Below, piece after piece: positions 1 to 59,446 of a stretch of DNA of 64,000 nt. Position numbers and translations under genes: made by a program. Location: assembly GCA_011939005.1 (NCBI GenBank), contig GCA_011939005.1_4858.1; one strand, written 5' to 3'. Origin of the DNA: a phage. How positions within the stretch are numbered: position 1 is the stretch's first letter; each line of letters starts with the position of its first letter. Below the pieces are notes generated by a model. The model did no database searches and was not told the DNA's origin. It was given only the letters and a program-made list of their open reading frames with translations.

Positions 1-891
1 GGTTTATCATACCTCACGCAGAATCTGTAAATTTTAATCAGCCAGGTACTGGCGTTTCACAACGGGAGTACCCACCCCTCTCGTCTGTTCCGAGCCGTCA
101 AGATCCGATCACCCCACTTTGGAGTTATCCCCCAAGTCTGCGGTTCTACACGCAGACCCCTTTTCGACGCAACGCCGAATTCGAATCAGTTTTGGCCCGA
201 CGCCAGAGCGGAATCAGCGATAACTATCGGAGGTAAGTTCAACGACGTCTCTCCGCTGCCCAGTCCTCTGGCGCTGCCACGGTCAACTCGGATTTTGTCA
301 TGGGTGCGCAGTCGACTTTCTCGACACTCTCGCAAACCGAACTACGCCCGACGTAGCACCGTCGGCAGGTCGGTTATTTACCGAGTACCTGAATGGGTGG
401 TGATTGTCGGAATCCCCGCCGACGCTCACCGGTTCTGTTCCACGGCGAAAGTTTTCCAGAACATAATAAATCACGCAGTGTTAGATTGCGCTTTGTCGAA
501 GACACCACGGTAGGTATTTTCGAAAAAGCGTCCTGGGTATCAGTCCCAGGACTTGGAGCCCTAGTGTGCAGGGTTTAAAAAGTGATTGGACCATTGGCGC
601 GGTCAATCGCTATTCGCATATAACAACAAACTCACGTAATCAAAAAATTACCGGCTCGAGGCGTAGGCGTCCAGGAGCCGGTGAGTCACACAGCAGTGAG
701 TCCCTCTGCGGGGATTTTCGTGGAGCTTGTCGTTGGAATAAAAATCCGTCCCCGGACGGGTTGGTGTTGTGGGTCGACTTGTCAGAGTCTACCTACCAGG
801 GAGGCGACCACCAAAGCTATGGGTTTTTGGACATCGAGTGGTGGTCTGAACACACGATAGGGAAACCACGTAAAAAATACACAGGGTACCC

Positions 892-1135
892 GATCTCGGT
901 CTTCCGTCCGATCACGATCTCTTAATAAGGATCACGCGCGCGCCCGCACGCGTTTTAAGATCTTAATATATTAATATATTTATTTATATAAATAATTATA
1001 ATAATTAAATATAATACCTAAAGGTATTATTATATTTAATATTATTATATATTTTAAAAGATCCTGGAGGATACGGGTGCGCGCACGCGCACGCGTATAA
1101 GGAAAGGGTCTTCGACCCGATCCACAGGATCGATC
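892..1135. promoter_or_regulatory. Candidate cis-acting element (replication-origin-like): A+T core 953-1059 with central palindrome 1011-1030, flanked by alternating Pu/Py GC tracts 933-952 and 1077-1096, 9 GATC sites
   Basis: Direct reading: GATC at 892, 910, 916, 930, 959, 1060, 1119, 1128, 1132; core has only 6 G/C in 107 nt; function is inference. Confidence 0.3.
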
Positions 1136-1686
1136 TAAAAAACAATCTAAGTGATTGTTTTAAAAAGAAATTTTGAGAATTAGATTAAATTATCCCCTAA
1201 GGGGGATTTTAGAGTGAGTTAAACAACCCAAAGAACTCGTAAGTAACCGACAGTGTGTGTCGGTTACAGAACGATCCAGTTTTCACCCAGACATGGCACG
1301 AAGTGCTACCCAACGTGTGATCGTCGCGGCGACCGGCGACCGTCGTCCCGGAACCGAAACGGGAATGGCTCTCTCGCGCTCTCAGCGGCCCGCTGGCGCG
1401 ATTTTCCGGTAGGGGGAACCCAAGTGTACTGGGTCAGTTATAAATCTCGTTCTAGCGCTTTCTAGAGCGTTTTTAATAACCGGTTAAAAAACATACAATC
1501 CTGAATCCCCATTCCCCGTATTTCCTCGCCCCGACAAAAATAAATTCACCGACTCGATGCAAGACCCCCTCTAAAACGCACGTAATTGACCCTAGAAAAC
1601 GATAAACTATCAAAAATGAGCTACCCTACATCCAGACCACTTAATCGTTTTCTGGTGTTTCCTAGACCTCTTTAATCGGATGGTTA

Positions 1687-1734
1687 AAAAAACAAAAAAA
1701 ATAAGATTGGCGTACTCCCCGAAGAGAGTACGCC
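1687..1734 (-). terminator. Intrinsic terminator (stem 1709-1717/1726-1734, UUCG-type loop on minus RNA, U-tract from plus A-run 1686-1704)
   Basis: 9-bp GC-rich stem directly 3' of minus-strand gene ending at 1742, followed on minus strand by long U-run. Confidence 0.7.
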
Positions 1735-1741
1735 TAGTGAC

Positions 1742-2251
1742 TTAACACTTGATGGTGTAGCCATCAAGGCCAAGGTGTACTGGTTTTATCCATAACCCTG
1801 GCTCCCCGAAAATATTCAGGTCGTAAGTTTGGTAATGCATGATCTTTGCAGGAACATGCACACCCATGCGTTGCAGAAATTCCCAGACGGCGACGTAGCG
1901 TTCACGAGTGATGAACATTAGCCCGGAGTCGAACCCGGAACCGATGTCTAGGAAATTACCAAGAGAACTGTCAAAACTTGACACCCCATCTTGAGTAAGT
2001 GCGACCAACCCTTTAGTTAAATCTCTGTGGTTGTCAATGAAGTTACAGAGATCTACGATGGTTATTTGACCGTAAATACGACGGAGGACGGCAGCAACAG
2101 CCAAAATCTCGCTGGTATTTCCGTAGTCACCTAAAGGGTTATGGTCCATCATCGCAGTAATTATGCTTGTGTCGCAGAGGTCGATTAACCGCTGGTCGTG
2201 TACCACCAGGTTAAGACCTTGCTCCACCTGCACGGTTGGCGCAGTAAACAT
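1742..2251 (-). CDS. Hypothetical protein (about 169 aa; ORF extends to 2296 but internal ATG at 2251 follows SD ggag and avoids overlap)
   Basis: Six-frame ORF; SD ggagcctcct immediately before ATG at 2251 and just after stop of upstream gene. Confidence 0.5.
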   Translation of the reverse strand: MFTAPTVQVEQGLNLVVHDQRLIDLCDTSIITAMMDHNPLGDYGNTSEILAVAAVLRRIYGQITIVDLCNFIDNHRDLTKGLVALTQDGVSSFDSSLGNFLDIGSGFDSGLMFITRERYVAVWEFLQRMGVHVPAKIMHYQTYDLNIFGEPGLWIKPVHLGLDGYTIKC

Positions 2252-2261
2252 AGGAGGCTCC

Positions 2262-3395
2262 TTACGTTTTGACTGACTGTGAAGGTAATCTGGCATCGTA
2301 CATTAAAAAGATTTCCAGCAGGTTCATACCCGTCGCGTAAAAGATTTGGTCTGTGATGACACTCACTAACGCATCTGGGTCAATCGCATCTACTGCGAAA
2401 TCGCTGTCGAACTGCCAGAACTCGACGTCATCCCCCTTTTCAAACGTCGCGGCATACAATCCAGGTTTCACACCACGCCGGAACGAAAAGAGTTTTGCGT
2501 CAGACTCAGTGTCCTTACCATAAATTTCCCCGTCGGTCAGTGTGATCGCTGCGCGTTTACACCGAGTTACCGTAAGGAGCGCACGGTTTGCAGATGCTTG
2601 CGATTTAAACGGATAGGGGCCATCGTATGTCGGGACATTCTGGTCGCCTAAGGCATCAAGTGCCTTACTCCGATAGACTACCGGAGACTTAAAATTACAC
2701 AGTCGATTCCCTTCGGTAAACATTGTGTATTCGACCTTAACGTCGGTACCGACGAGGTCAGCAGGGGACACTTTGTAGTGTGCTAACTGTCCCTGCACGC
2801 GGCGAGAGAGCATCGATGCCAGGAACGTGTGGTTGCCCTGTGTACGCAAGACATACCCAAACTCTGTGCAGTCGACGATACGAGCGTCCATACGCCGTAC
2901 AGGCTCCAGCCGGTAAGTCACATCATTCGCTTCGATAAGAAACTGACTGATGCTAACATCGCGAGATCGATGTTTGATTGCTTCAAACACTTCACCCGCT
3001 TCCAGAATAGCTGGTTCAATTACATTGACCTGGAATGGGAGGGGTTTCGTCGGCCGTTGACCCATTGTTGTCACTGTCATCGAACGTAGCCACGGGTCGT
3101 CCTCGCTAGGGTCATTGGAGAGCCAATGCGTTAACCAGCGAGAAAGATTCTGGGGAATCGTTGCGGTTGAATATAAAATCACGGTACCCATTATGCCTGC
3201 ATCGGCCAGCAAGCGCGCGAGTACCGTGTTCATCGAATCGTATTTGCCATTTCGAAGAATAGGTAATCCCCCGACCTGGACCATTTCGCAGATGACGCCG
3301 TGCGGCAGCACCCACATCTTCACTTGTTGGGCAGAATGTATCTGCCCCGTGCGTAGCTTTTCTTGCCACGCGTGCTTACGTTCATAGTTCATCAT
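2262..3395 (-). CDS. Hypothetical protein, 377 aa
   Basis: Long ORF, SD aggag upstream, followed by terminator at 1709-1734 after next gene. Confidence 0.6.
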   Translation of the reverse strand: MMNYERKHAWQEKLRTGQIHSAQQVKMWVLPHGVICEMVQVGGLPILRNGKYDSMNTVLARLLADAGIMGTVILYSTATIPQNLSRWLTHWLSNDPSEDDPWLRSMTVTTMGQRPTKPLPFQVNVIEPAILEAGEVFEAIKHRSRDVSISQFLIEANDVTYRLEPVRRMDARIVDCTEFGYVLRTQGNHTFLASMLSRRVQGQLAHYKVSPADLVGTDVKVEYTMFTEGNRLCNFKSPVVYRSKALDALGDQNVPTYDGPYPFKSQASANRALLTVTRCKRAAITLTDGEIYGKDTESDAKLFSFRRGVKPGLYAATFEKGDDVEFWQFDSDFAVDAIDPDALVSVITDQIFYATGMNLLEIFLMYDARLPSQSVKT

Positions 3396-3467
3396 TGGGT
3401 AAAATCTCCTTCAGGTATACTCTCAGTATGATAACATATATCCGTAAATTTTTAGAGGTTTAGCGCC

Positions 3468-4910: not shown

Positions 4911-5153
4911 TCAGGCGAGTGCTCCCGATACGGCAACTTGATGTAGGGTATACACAACGTGTAGCCCCGCGGTCGATAGTCCACCGATAAGCAATACGCC
5001 AAAGCTACAGATAATCTGTCCGAGCCGCATTGTGCGTGTGCAGACATCGTGGCTTTGTGCGTGTATGCGTATTACTTCGATGGTGTGGCGTAAGCCAAAG
5101 TACAGGCAAATCCACATTACCAGCACGATTGCATAGTAGAGTTGAGTCATCAC
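4911..5153 (-). CDS. Small membrane protein with two predicted TM helices (holin-like candidate)
   Basis: 80 aa, two hydrophobic stretches (LYYAIVLVMWICLYFGL and IICSFGVLLIGGLSTAGLHVV); start overlaps terminase stop by 4 nt. Confidence 0.45.
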   Translation of the reverse strand: MMTQLYYAIVLVMWICLYFGLRHTIEVIRIHAQSHDVCTRTMRLGQIICSFGVLLIGGLSTAGLHVVYTLHQVAVSGALA

Positions 5154-7261
5154 TTCATCCTCTGTCGTTGGATTAGCTCTTTCAAGCTTTCCATCGATGC
5201 GACGTTACGAACGTCAGTGTTGAGTTGAGAGACGAGCGCTTGAATACGATTCTTGTACATGAGCTGTTGTACCGGGTCGGCTACAACTTGACTCTGTCTA
5301 ATCATCGTTTCAATTTGCCCCATCAGTTGTTGTTGCTTTTCTTCTTCCTCGACTGCAGCCTCTTCATCGAATTCACCTGCCATGCCCCCAAGCATATTGC
5401 GGTTGCGCATCATCAGTCGGCTGTTACTTATACCGTAGTGGCCTAAGTTGTTGCCGAACAGAAGTAACCACATTGCCAGAAGCCAGGATATTACCAGGTC
5501 ATCGTGACCGGATGCACGGTGGTCTATGCGCCCGTTTCGTTCGACGAGACCGAGGATTTGGTCGATCAATTCGCCTGACCGCAGTAAGTCCGCAGAAAGA
5601 CGCAACGCCGTGGTAAATACTTCACCATACAACTTACGGCGTTTATCCTGGTCGGTTGAGAAACCGATGTATTTACGGAATTTGTCCCAGAAGCGCTCTG
5701 GACTGCCCACAGGGCCACGATGGAACTCTTTGTAAAGTTCATCGTTCCTTGAGTAATCCTGGGTCACTTTCACGTACAAACGACGATGCAAATCGCGAAC
5801 CTTAGATTGCAGCTGCAGTATAATGGCATCTGCTACCGAGGAGCCGGTAGACCGTCGTTCCAGAATGAGTACCGTGTTCGGATATTCGATCATGAAGTCT
5901 GCTAAGTGAATCGCAAACCCGATGACGTTTGTTTCGTTCACGGTGAGCTTGCCGGCATATTCGGCAGTGACAGAGTTGACGATTGACATGGCAATGGCGT
6001 CACGTCCAACGGCTTCGGAAGTATCCAAACCGATGATGTGGCGGTCTTGCATTTTAACCAGCATCTGCTCTTCAGTGTAATACCAATCCGTTACGTAGTT
6101 GGATGCAGAGATAATTTTCTGCGCCGCACGAACACGCGAGTCGTTCATACGTCTTGCATCATCGCCTGAGAACGGTTTGTTGTAACCACCGGTTGTCCAT
6201 TCACCACCGAAGTCACGGCGGATTTGGTCTAGTGTACCTGGGGCGTTCGCAATCATATCTGCGAGTTCTTCGTCCGTGGTACCGAGTTGGCGGTGGTTGT
6301 ATTTCACGTAGAACATGATACGTGGAATCTTCGCAGTAGAGCCTTTGCGAATCATGTCAATCAGTTGTGCACGAGTCGGAATGTCGATATACCGTTCATC
6401 CCACGAAATCCCCGACGTCATCAGGCTGTACATGTACTCGCCTTCTTCTGTCGCCAAATCCCCAGGCGTTGTTGCGAAGACGTTGCCGTATGGAACACCT
6501 TCGGCTTCGTTAATACGACGCGCCGCGGTACCCGATGCTAGTGCAGCAGGGAGGATATGGTGGATGTTGTTGGTAAACGGTCCTTCATCCGAGAACAGGC
6601 GTCCGGCTGTGAGTCCACGGCCTACCCCGTTCGCAGCTTCCTTATCGTTTTGACCGATGCCGGTGATAAGTTTGTTACCCTGTGCTAGACAAGCAAATGT
6701 CTCACGGTTATCAGGATCGTCCGGATGATGAGGCCAGAGATAATCCGGTAACGCGTTACGCAGTTGTTTCATTTTGTTGATAGTTTCTTCACGCAGGGCA
6801 GGACCCTTCGTGATAAGAATCGTACGTGAGTTCTCCAGGAAGCGCATCAGCCACAATAGCAATGCGGACATCCCGACGGTCTTACCATGCTGACGGAGAA
6901 ACTCGATAGCGGCGTCGATGTTGTTGAAGAAAATCCAATACATCGAAAAGTTACCGCGGTCTAGACGAAACGGCATCCCGTTCTTTACACCATCCGCAGG
7001 GACCCGGACACACTCACGGAAGAAGTACCATGGGTTTTCCGCACACTCCGTAACAATCATCGCTTTTTGTTCGAGTGTTAAATCCGGGCTAAACGGATCA
7101 ACACCACGGAGTTCGGGATTGTGTAATGCCAGGTGGACGTACCAATGCTGGACACCTAATCCTTGTAGTGTTGTGGCGAATTGAAGGAAGTGCACGTTTG
7201 GTGTGACATCGTCAACAATCGCCCCCGGATAGTGTCGCCAATCGTTTTTTCGCAGTATCAT
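5150..7261 (-). CDS. terL: Terminase large subunit (T4 gp17-like)
   Basis: 703 aa; LRQHGKTVGMSALL resembles T4 gp17 Walker A SRQLGKTTVVAIF; C-terminal GHDDLVISWLLAMWLL resembles gp17 nuclease motif GYHDDLVMSLVIFGWL (both from memory); SD ggag. Confidence 0.9.
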   Translation of the reverse strand: MILRKNDWRHYPGAIVDDVTPNVHFLQFATTLQGLGVQHWYVHLALHNPELRGVDPFSPDLTLEQKAMIVTECAENPWYFFRECVRVPADGVKNGMPFRLDRGNFSMYWIFFNNIDAAIEFLRQHGKTVGMSALLLWLMRFLENSRTILITKGPALREETINKMKQLRNALPDYLWPHHPDDPDNRETFACLAQGNKLITGIGQNDKEAANGVGRGLTAGRLFSDEGPFTNNIHHILPAALASGTAARRINEAEGVPYGNVFATTPGDLATEEGEYMYSLMTSGISWDERYIDIPTRAQLIDMIRKGSTAKIPRIMFYVKYNHRQLGTTDEELADMIANAPGTLDQIRRDFGGEWTTGGYNKPFSGDDARRMNDSRVRAAQKIISASNYVTDWYYTEEQMLVKMQDRHIIGLDTSEAVGRDAIAMSIVNSVTAEYAGKLTVNETNVIGFAIHLADFMIEYPNTVLILERRSTGSSVADAIILQLQSKVRDLHRRLYVKVTQDYSRNDELYKEFHRGPVGSPERFWDKFRKYIGFSTDQDKRRKLYGEVFTTALRLSADLLRSGELIDQILGLVERNGRIDHRASGHDDLVISWLLAMWLLLFGNNLGHYGISNSRLMMRNRNMLGGMAGEFDEEAAVEEEEKQQQLMGQIETMIRQSQVVADPVQQLMYKNRIQALVSQLNTDVRNVASMESLKELIQRQRMK

Positions 7262-18437: not shown

Positions 18438-18530
18438 TGTAAATACTCCTTCTGGGTAATAGTCGATTAAAGCGTTAACGTGTAACGCTCACCTAAGTAA
18501 TATATATCTCAGTTCTTTTTGAATGCAATT

Positions 18531-50117: not shown

Positions 50118-50193
50118 AGGTGTTATCCTATTATGAGATGTTGTCTCGGATAGATAATATCTGTCTGAGTTCTTTTTGAGATGAGGTTATCCC

Positions 50194-58652: not shown

Positions 58653-58705
58653 CGTGAATAAATTCTCCTTAAGGTTACGTCCCTGTAGATAATATCTATC
58701 TCAGA

Positions 58706-59446
58706 TTACTTTAAGAGATGCAAGAAGCGTGCTGCCTGTTCTGTAAAGTGAAAATACTCGATGGTATCAGGTTCGTCCGAGTGAATGTCGTCCGGGTCCA
58801 GCAGGTAGCCCGAGATATCATCCGTTAAAACCCAAGCGTCCCCTTGCAGGAAAATACCCATCGGTTTTTCTACCACGGGCATCACTAAGTCCGAATAAGA
58901 GTTACCTTCTGCTACCCTTACAATGTCTTCGCACGGGTCAACAATATACAGGTTGCAGAGACTGCGATCTTTAAGACTGCGATGAAACATCGCTCGATCG
59001 TACCAAATAACCTGAGAACAATTATCTTCGTCACCCGCCACATCGACCAACTCTGTCCAGAAACGATGTAAGAACCAGTTCAACGCACCGGTTATTAGCT
59101 CGTTCGGTTTCAGCATTCTAACGTGTTCGTCGTACAACTCTTCCATTGTCCAGATTCGACATTGCTCACGATCGATTGTCGGTAGCGGAGGTATTTGCGG
59201 CGGGACTTGTTTAGGCATCGGCTCATCACATCTTGCATTGTAACGCGCAATTGTTTCGGTAACCAGCTCTGCCACAACATCACAAGCCGCTTCAAATCCC
59301 CACTTGTACAACACGTCGTAATCTTCCATGGGCGCAGCACCGAACTCACGGTTCGTTGCCATCCACGACATCCATCCGTATTGCTCCACACAGTTAATCA
59401 GACTTTGTGTGTGGAGCGTGAGCGATTCACTCACGACTCGCAACAT
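58706..59446 (-). CDS. Hypothetical protein (about 247 aa; start at ATG 59446)
   Basis: SD gaggtg; ATG overlaps stop of upstream gene (ATG at 59444-59446, TAA at 59448-59450). Confidence 0.5.
   Translation of the reverse strand: MLRVVSESLTLHTQSLINCVEQYGWMSWMATNREFGAAPMEDYDVLYKWGFEAACDVVAELVTETIARYNARCDEPMPKQVPPQIPPLPTIDREQCRIWTMEELYDEHVRMLKPNELITGALNWFLHRFWTELVDVAGDEDNCSQVIWYDRAMFHRSLKDRSLCNLYIVDPCEDIVRVAEGNSYSDLVMPVVEKPMGIFLQGDAWVLTDDISGYLLDPDDIHSDEPDTIEYFHFTEQAARFLHLLK

Follow-up and report, generated by a model that had tools for sequence, protein, structure and literature searches.

Why does a giant phage keep nine GATC sites around a short and extremely A+T-rich core, in a part of its genome that carries no genes? 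The locus lies near one end of a stretch of 64,000 nucleotides, called the window here. The window was found to be an SPN3US-like genome (Seoulvirus, Chimalliviridae) from the group of giant Salmonella and E. coli phages. Window positions 1-1800 share 92-99.5% identity with about 35 SPN3US-like jumbo phages (Seoulvirus), the large terminase (5150-7261, minus strand) is 100% identical to the terminase of Escherichia phage EC001, and the membership list of Chimalliviridae includes SPN3US. The window is oriented opposite to the SPN3US reference record; SPN3US base 1 falls at window position 1167, and the first gene of SPN3US, which codes for an HslV-like peptidase, begins 17 nt past window base 1. 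The 1.7 kb that hold the locus had been called gene-free in the first-pass annotation, and this is correct: only short ORFs occur there, none with a PHROG match, and the relatives have no annotated CDS in the region 1-1741. An Rfam 15 scan of positions 1-2000 returned three sub-threshold chance matches, none at the gathering score, and a tRNA search of the gene-free region found none. The proteins neighbouring the element have no recognisable Pfam domain, and the label "DNA ligase" given to one of them in some records was dropped as unsupported. The right edge of the gap is formed by the end of an operon:

1709-1734, minus strand: intrinsic terminator, which closes the upstream operon and marks the right edge of the gene-free region
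1742-2296 and 2262-3395: genes of the upstream operon, driven by a promoter-like site at 3418-3457

The element sits at a seam of the genome, from which nearly all genes run away in one direction. Since the cumulative GC skew tracks gene orientation and has no turning point, it is uninformative, and origin prediction by skew was dropped. In every relative, the large terminase gene lies about 4 kb from the element. The parts of the element and its flanks, none of which is assigned to a strand, are as follows:

864 to 883: upstream conserved block AACCACGTAAAAAATACACA (containing the motif TGTAAAAAA), aligned in Seoulvirus, Erskinevirus and Wellingtonvirus; single copy in SPN3US
892, 910, 916, 930, 959, 1060, 1119, 1128 and 1132: starts of the GATC sites, nine in 244 bp
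892 to 933: left GATC cluster (sites 892, 910, 916 and 930), which includes the block CCGATCACGATCTCTTAATAAGGATCACGCG
908-938: cross-genus block CCGATCACGATCTCTTAATAAGGATCACGCG, single copy in the genome
934 to 953: left GC-rich imperfect palindrome ACGCGCGCGCCCGCACGCGT, whose alternating purine/pyrimidine tract is interrupted
953 to 1059: A+T-rich core, a candidate DNA-unwinding element, 107 bp with 6 G/C (94% A+T)
955-966: palindrome TTAAGA/TCTTAA, which opens the core and carries GATC 959
1011 to 1030: core palindrome B, ATAATACCT-AA-AGGTATTAT, with perfect 9-bp arms
1052 to 1076: right conserved block TTTTAAAAGATCCTGGAGGATACGG, which carries GATC 1060; the best-conserved non-coding block of the region, single copy
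1077 to 1099: right GC palindrome, 23 nt of perfectly alternating purine/pyrimidine, Z-DNA-prone
1091 to 1107: conserved block ACGCGTATAAGGAAAGG, found across genera as CGCGTATAA(T/G)GAAAG; single copy
1106 to 1135: right part, in which the small hairpin GGGTCTTCGACCC is followed by the right GATC cluster (1119, 1128 and 1132)
1156 to 1306: conserved right flank, with the A+T-rich block TGTTTTAAAAAGAAATTTTGAGAATTAG (1156-1183) and three hairpins
1192-1207, 1243-1267 and 1296-1306: the right-flank hairpins, whose pairing is kept despite sequence change

Are nine GATC sites in 244 bp exceptional in this genome? About one by chance had been expected in the first-pass annotation, and all nine sites are present at their coordinates. 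The window has 164 GATC sites (2.56 per kb), so that a 244-bp stretch should have about 0.6 by local density or about 1 by base composition, and no other 244-bp stretch of the window approaches nine. A genome-wide count had been proposed as a check. It was run on the complete SPN3US genome (240 kb) and confirmed the local enrichment: GATC occurs 489 times there with an observed/expected ratio of 0.40, which makes it the most depleted 4-bp palindrome, and the element is the sole locus with at least 5 GATC per 250 bp. The nine sites stand in the contexts CGATC (five), GGATC (two) and AGATC (two). They are laid out on either side of the core, at 892-959 and at 1060-1132, which gives four or five on the left and four on the right.

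The core itself is present as first described, about 107 bp at 953-1059 with 6 G/C, and nowhere in the window is the A+T content higher. In the 240-kb SPN3US genome, no other place reaches 75% A+T per 100 bp, the 99.9th percentile of the genome being 71%. The nearest-neighbour duplex free energy of the core is -87.9 kcal/mol against -140 +/- 6 for the SPN3US genome (z = 8.6), and it is the least stable 100 bp both in the window and in SPN3US (z = 8.5-8.6); the runner-up locus in SPN3US has z = 4.6. The core contains 31 TA steps and no phased A-tracts. It had been said to be centred on a perfect 8-bp inverted repeat at 1011-1030. The palindrome is indeed perfect (P = 0.001 versus composition-preserving shuffles), but its arms are 9 bp long and it lies to the right of the core midpoint.

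Two alternating GC tracts had also been proposed to bracket the core. The right one (1077-1099) is perfect over 23 nt, longer than any other alternating purine/pyrimidine run of the window or of the SPN3US genome (next 16-17 nt), whereas the left one (933-952) is broken by CCC. The hairpin free energy of the right GC palindrome is -9.9 kcal/mol. Direct repeats in the element are two-copy and imperfect (936-960 with 1079-1103, and 898-913 with 1107-1122), and every conserved block occurs once per genome (SPN3US). In summary, four independent measures, namely GATC density, A+T content, duplex stability and the alternating purine/pyrimidine run, pick out the same 250 bp.

Is this common among the relatives of SPN3US? 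Comparison with the syntenic regions of related jumbo phages, another check proposed at the outset, recovered the element at the same position and with the same architecture in at least four genera and in three metagenome-assembled genomes. The terminase, a 377-aa protein and a 170-aa protein are encoded upstream of it. The carriers include SPAsTU, pEa_SNUABM_29 and MET_P1 of Seoulvirus; Asesino, phiEaH2 and Stratton of Erskinevirus; Huxley, Caitlin and pEa_SNUABM_4 of Machinavirus; and Kwan and pEa_SNUABM_11 of Wellingtonvirus. Since the neighbouring 377-aa protein is only 48-60% identical between carrier genera, neutral DNA would be expected to be scrambled over the same distance. In the alignment, three blocks are nearly unchanged between genera: GATCTC(G/T)TAATAAGGATCACGCG on the left, TTTTAAAAGATCCTG(G/T)AGGA(A/T)A(C/T)GG at the right edge of the core, and the block already given for 1091 to 1107 after the right GC tract. 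The right block TTTTAAAAGATCCTGGAGGATACGG in particular is all but identical between genera that share only about 50% identity in the neighbouring protein. Between the blocks the sequence is free; the core varies from 60 to 107 bp across lineages and is always extremely A+T-rich. Within Seoulvirus the element sequence is nearly invariant, and one relative has a 17-bp insertion inside the core.

Two perfect palindromes lie at fixed distances from the right block, and their sequence varies by lineage, the arms being ATAATACCT/AGGTATTAT, TAATATCT/AGATATTA, TATATCCC/GGGATATA, ATACTACTAC/GTAGTAGTAT or AAACCC/GGGTTT. A counterpart of palindrome B, with another sequence at the same distance from the right anchor, was found in 7 of the 9 other genomes tested. 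Its shuffle P is <=0.003 in SPAsTU, SNU29, Asesino and phiEaH2 (five genomes in all reach this level) and 0.024-0.058 in Huxley, Caitlin and SNU4; none was found in the two Wellingtonvirus genomes tested. The GC tracts behave in a similar way. Alternating runs of 21-25 nt with a different sequence occur in six other lineages, each of them also a GC palindrome by reading, and GC palindromes of different sequence, as read from the alignments, stand in the relatives at the place of the left one. In the right flank, the hairpin at 1243-1267 has z = -5.8.

The single strand 925-1105 folds far better than shuffles (z = -4.6), and no strand asymmetry was found in the folding energy of the element. 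Its palindromes consist of perfect Watson-Crick pairs without wobble pairs. Because the palindromes keep their position and not their sequence, fold this well, show no strand preference and lack wobble pairs, the comparison points to selection that would act on DNA shape and on protein-recognised blocks, and not on RNA.

Of 14 lineages, 12 are significantly enriched in GATC (P between 1e-3 and 1e-7), with individual sites gained and lost; the right-hand sites are present in most relatives at varying positions. In the Caitlin/SNU4 lineage the cluster has decayed to 2-3 sites. The cluster is absent from the sister group (Derbicus, Phobos and CR5), where another region, about 80% A+T and with one GATC, fills the syntenic gap. 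No comparable element was found near the terminase gene of Moabite, Deimos-Minion and RTH11, a weak negative based on 14-26 kb per genome, and the sampled regions of more distant enterobacterial chimalliviruses show no GATC depletion. A pattern scan of IMG/VR with AAAAGATCCTGNAGGA was discarded; it gave almost only chance matches and one Asesino-like contig.

Which enzyme may methylate these sites? SPN3US encodes a D12-class adenine methyltransferase (Pfam PF02086, E = 2.5e-52) with the motifs FVEPFVGAGSVFLN, YNGLCRYN...FNVP and DPPY. Over its full length this enzyme aligns with E. coli Dam (PDB 2g1p, E = 1.4e-54) and also with DpnM, which acts on GATC. The gene of this Dam homologue is syntenic in every element-bearing genus, and the Caitlin/SNU4 lineage has retained it. 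In Derbicus, the one genome of the sister group searched, no Dam homologue was found in the syntenic 50 kb, and GATC is even rarer in that stretch (observed/expected 0.19). This link between Dam and the cluster amounts to a single evolutionary contrast and is suggestive only.

It had been proposed that the element uses host Dam and SeqA as oriC does. This part of the proposal is not supported. The phages of this clade have a close homologue of E. coli Dam of their own, and the element lacks a DnaA box at up to one mismatch and a 13-mer match at fewer than three mismatches. In addition, genome replication of Goslar, another member of Chimalliviridae, does not start until the DNA is inside the protein-walled phage nucleus (bioRxiv 10.1101/2023.09.20.558163). 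The phage nucleus is reported to keep out host nucleases and to let in selected proteins, so that host proteins are probably shut out of it. Since replication takes place inside the phage nucleus, dependence on host Dam/SeqA is unlikely.

As far as its sequence can tell, the element is at present the best candidate for the place at which replication, or else packaging, of the phage genome begins. I give a probability of roughly 40% to the reading that it is a single replication-initiation region under the control of phage Dam methylation. The initial description as an origin-like cis element holds for the melting-prone core, the GC clamps and the clustered Dam sites, which occur once per genome and are kept across genera; the sequence hallmarks of oriC are missing. 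Replication would begin as follows. Inside the phage nucleus, a phage-encoded initiator would recognise the arm blocks GATCTCTTAATAAGGATCAC and AAGATCCTGGAGGATACGG. The core would then melt under negative superhelical stress, and the small palindromes would extrude as hairpins, which could be helicase or primase loading signals. The GC tracts would confine the bubble. The GATC sites would be methylated by phage Dam, and their full or hemimethylated state may mark the copies that have just fired or may time initiation. Such a role would parallel that of Dam at oriC and at the P1 plasmid origin, with no need for host SeqA or DnaA.

Several observations favour the origin. The dominant feature of the element is the duplex instability of a TA-step-rich, non-bent core between GC clamps. 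Hairpin-forming palindromes, which are typical loading signals in unwinding regions, lie within the part that would unwind. Nearly all genes run in one direction away from the element, and its conserved blocks have more words in common with E. coli oriC than expected from GATC-preserving shuffles. On the other side, the Derbicusvirus relatives must replicate too and do so without the element, and Caitlin/SNU4 keep Dam but have lost most GATC sites. Moreover, a terminase gene about 4 kb away and two GATC clusters around a centre are the layout of the P1 pac site as well.

A pac site is the main rival and the strongest alternative to the origin, and I regard it as somewhat unlikely. In a P1-type pac site, the terminase or another recognition subunit would bind the GATC arms, the first cut would be made in the A+T core, methylation by phage Dam would select the concatemer copies to be cut, and later headfuls would be measured without sequence specificity. 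The four to five GATC sites on the left and four on the right of the central region, the phage Dam, the constant distance to the large terminase gene and the single-copy nature of the element would all agree with this. But the P1 hexamer occurs at just one of the nine sites, an IHF consensus is missing, and the element is intergenic, not inside a terminase gene. A 94% A+T core of maximal instability is not a known requirement of pac, either. Papers on this phage family assume or report headful packaging with no defined signal; the assumption is drawn from terminase homology. In other giant phages of the family, PhageTerm detected no termini. The breakpoints of public assemblies scatter (968, 1016-1032, 1024, 1030/1066 and 1167) and are uninformative as to virion ends, and metagenomes read through the core. 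Spread over 100 bp and accompanied by small sequence losses, they look like low coverage of 94% A+T DNA and not like a defined end. The start positions of database records were also considered as physical ends and rejected, because base 1 of the Erwinia phages was chosen by alignment to the phage family and the core breakpoints scatter. Hairpin ends were considered as well, from the word ACGCGCGTATAATG, shared by the element and N15 telO. This protelomerase-site idea was abandoned: the arms are direct repeats and not mirror-symmetric, and hairpin ends are not known for this genome.

Could the element control transcription instead? It might be a one-off insulator, or a switch that responds to methylation, set between the gp1-tRNA operon, whose start is just left of the window, and the operon that ends at 1709-1734; or it might be the promoter or terminator of a small RNA in the right flank. 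The element does lie between a terminator and a next operon that has no common promoter, and both arms have -10-like words, TAATAAGGA and TATAAGGA. Hairpin-plus-T-run sites are enriched in the gap (11 versus 2.5 expected), and the right-flank hairpins keep their pairing, with the minus strand folding slightly better in 8 of 10 genomes. Dam-controlled promoters are established in enterobacteria and phage Mu. Against this, the arm blocks occur once per genome and so do not form a promoter class, there is no Rfam match above threshold, and the perfect Watson-Crick palindromes without strand bias indicate DNA and not RNA. A 107-bp core of 94% A+T with GC clamps and a Z-DNA-prone run also goes far beyond what a promoter needs. 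A promoter class was likewise rejected on the absence from the region of a 40-nt promoter-like motif that was derived here and has 24 copies in SPN3US, and a known RNA or tRNA was rejected because none was found and the strands fold alike. I consider control of transcription improbable.

A programmed break site or recombination hot spot seems quite improbable. Cruciforms would be cut by an SbcCD-like nuclease or a resolvase, and the resulting ends would be used for priming recombination-dependent replication or for resolving concatemers. Several perfect palindromes that lie in easily unwound DNA, the SbcD-like and SMC/SbcC-like proteins annotated for the phage, and the 17-bp insertion in the core of one relative would suit such a site. 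However, arms of 6-11 bp are marginal for a stable cruciform, neither the GATC cluster nor Dam has a link to such a mechanism, and the near-invariance within Seoulvirus is unlike a fragile site. That the element has no function, being a compositional oddity, the remnant of a mobile element or an assembly artefact, is hardly credible: extreme A+T tracts are indeed a source of sequencing trouble, and several public assemblies are broken at this point, but the conservation data contradict this reading, in that the architecture recurs in metagenomes and in genomes of at least four genera that were sequenced independently, the blocks persist where neutral DNA would be saturated, and the GATC density is kept despite site turnover.

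If the replication-origin reading is true, what would it mean? No defined replication origin or pac site for nucleus-forming jumbo phages was found in the literature searched, in agreement with the initial statement that no origin is defined for this kind of phage. It is a tentative and rather doubtful further step that the element would be the first cis-acting origin for Chimalliviridae, a single and methylation-gated one. It would combine phage Dam and a phage initiator with an unwinding core, positionally conserved hairpins, Z-DNA-prone clamps and arms that echo, and may have been captured from or may mimic, enterobacterial oriC modules. A true origin would make it possible to build replicons and reporters that live inside the phage nucleus, would help to identify the initiator, and would explain the genome-wide GATC avoidance of the clade together with the retained Dam gene. 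If the element is a pac site, the assumption of packaging without a signal would be overturned, which is relevant to transduction and phage engineering. In either case, the target is testable: about 250 bp, once per genome, across genera, with a regulatory partner, phage Dam, in the same genomes. The element also explains why many public assemblies are broken or opened at this point.

How does the element compare with known systems? E. coli oriC, the only oriC sequence used in this comparison, has 11 GATC sites in 232 bp against 9 in 244 bp here, and GATC clustering of the oriC type was found at this one place in 240 kb. Both have an A+T-rich unwinding region, whose edges begin with GATCT reading inward, and the word GATCTCTTAATAAGGATC of the element resembles the R 13-mer region GATCTCTTATTAGGATC of oriC. 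The best local match to the R 13-mer is at 916-933 (16 of 18 positions with one gap), which is not significant alone. The two sequences share 39 7-mers, compared with 23.8 +/- 5.9 for GATC-preserving shuffles (P = 0.009). The shared words of 7 to 9 nt exceed the shuffles, fall in the conserved blocks and include GATCTCTTA, GATCCTGGA and CGTATAAG. Homology to oriC was rejected all the same, since the best local alignment is reached by 26 of 300 shuffles and is not significant; the modestly significant word count is a lead and not membership. Between 850 and 1200, no DnaA box TTATNCACA was found at up to one mismatch. Sites with two mismatches do occur, such as CGATCCACA at 1118 and TTATACGCG at 1092 (minus strand), but their number is not above expectation, and the one at 1118 is not conserved in relatives. 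The best matches to the 13-mers GATCTnTTnTTTT have three mismatches (916, 973 and 1051, minus strand). The element differs from oriC in having no array of DnaA boxes, no IHF site and one 107-bp core with internal palindromes in place of three 13-mers. It is also flanked by GC palindromes and a Z-DNA-prone tract, and it would work in the phage nucleus with phage Dam and not with host factors.

P1 encodes its own Dam. The P1 pac site is 161 bp long; of its seven GATC-containing hexamers, four lie on one side and three on the other of a central cleavage region, and Dam methylation is the proposed control of cleavage (PMC10028697). The element resembles it in the two Dam-site clusters around a centre, the size of 160-250 bp, the terminase gene nearby and the phage's own Dam-family methylase. 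The P1 hexamer TGATCA/G was found at only one of the nine sites (TGATCG, minus strand, 909), and the IHF site WATCAANNNNTTR has no exact match, only matches with one mismatch, which are trivial in A+T-rich DNA. Unlike the intergenic element, P1 pac sits inside pacA and has neither a 94% A+T core nor GC clamps.

The P1 origin oriR and other Dam-dependent plasmid origins consist of short GATC repeats, a G+C-rich stretch and an A+T-rich region, and their function needs adenine methylation. The element likewise has GATC sites beside a G+C-rich stretch and an A+T-rich region, but it lacks the 19-bp initiator iterons and DnaA boxes of oriR, and its phage is strictly lytic with a 240-kb genome. A search for at least three direct repeats of 17-22 bp, as in the iteron-type origins of lambda, P1 oriR and RK2, found none. 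As for origins of the T4 oriF/oriG or T7 type, with a promoter and an unwinding element, the 24-copy motif has no score above 0 in window 1-1800, a result that applies to that promoter class only; the conserved blocks, being single-copy, are not a promoter class themselves. Herpes simplex virus oriS and oriL and the SV40 core origin have a meltable A+T segment between palindromic GC-containing arms, and hairpins accompany their unwinding. Long palindromic origins are known to trouble cloning and sequencing. These viruses and their initiators are unrelated to the phage, there is no sequence similarity, and methylation is not known to have a role in those origins. Since each of the known classes had at least one defining sequence feature that was looked for and is missing here, the element falls outside the oriC-type, P1 pac, iteron and promoter-plus-unwinding classes, yet appears to work like them.

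The arms of the GATC-rich element (window 892-1135) evolve by turnover of sites. It was found that MET_P1, a close relative, has lost two GATC sites of the element, and that its core is lengthened by a 17-bp A+T insertion (L001 ~6960-6980, against window 966). The GATC at window 892 was found just in the window's own phage. Thus, turnover occurs even inside a species-level group.

Is the flagged 244 bp the only functional part of the gap? The entire 1.7-kb gene-free region looks functional. Window 1-1741 contains 11 sites consisting of a hairpin plus a T-run where 2.5 are expected, a fourfold enrichment; most of them lie on the minus strand. Several blocks to the left of the element (window ~830-890) are conserved across genera. 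The right flank has the following composition:

window 1156-1306: conserved A+T-rich block beginning TGTTTTAAAAAGAAATTTT, then three hairpins

The pairing of these three hairpins is kept while their sequence differs between genera. One of them has a GAA triloop, which in Asesino takes the very stable GCGAAGC form. The hairpins may represent a small RNA or terminators, or else serve as signals for single-strand initiation.

SPN3US contains 24 copies of a clear-cut promoter-like motif of 40 nt, CTCTAAAAAATTTCAGATAGATATTATCTAAGTGAGAGTT. In every case, it lies upstream of genes on the gene-sense strand. The copies in the window are as follows:

window 3418-3457, minus strand: 40-nt promoter-like motif
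window 18484-18523, minus strand: 40-nt promoter-like motif
window 50141-50180, minus strand: 40-nt promoter-like motif
window 58676-58715, minus strand: 40-nt promoter-like motif

The motif probably serves as the early promoter of the SPN3US-like group, the one read by the virion RNA polymerase; no published promoter consensus for SPN3US was found in the literature. On the minus strand, window 20-60 reads TTAAAATTTACAGATTCTGCGTGAGG; this stretch lies immediately upstream of gp1, which is off-window. It resembles the common motif minus its central octamer AGATATTA and may serve the HslV-like/tRNA operon as a promoter that is degenerate or regulated in another way. Some GenBank records give homologues of the 377-aa protein (window 2262-3395, minus strand) the name "putative DNA ligase". 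The protein itself matches no Pfam family, and its sole PHROG is one of unknown function.

Public assemblies for many related phages are opened or broken inside the A+T core. Window 955-1167 was compared with the record ends of EC001, JN03, Lh1B, SEGD1, SPFM2/16/17, Proteus phage 7, and SPN3US, and breakpoints in the core were located at window 968/969, 1016-1032, 1024, and 1030/1066 (with loss of 35 bp). At the end junction of the SPN3US record, window 1168-1222 (~55 bp) is missing. Most likely, all this stems from the effect of 94% A+T DNA on coverage or assembly, and public records are probably slightly incomplete at the core and at the SPN3US end junction.

GATC is strongly avoided throughout the SPN3US-like clade: observed/expected is 0.40 for the whole SPN3US genome and 0.19 for Derbicus (L141, 70-120 kb). 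Among more distant chimalliviruses, the regions sampled from Moabite, Deimos-Minion, and RTH11 (L142-L144) show no avoidance (~1.0).

The syntenic gap of the sister group, Derbicus (L129 6300-6850), CR5 (L131 6251-6700), and Phobos (L130), holds a differing element of ~80% A+T. It has a lone GATC between two direct AAGGGGGGAT repeats, two copies of the DnaA-box-like TTATCCAT (7/9), and an inverted pair of GTTGTAAAAAA. This suggests that, in the sister group as in the SPN3US-like phages, the syntenic site acts in cis.
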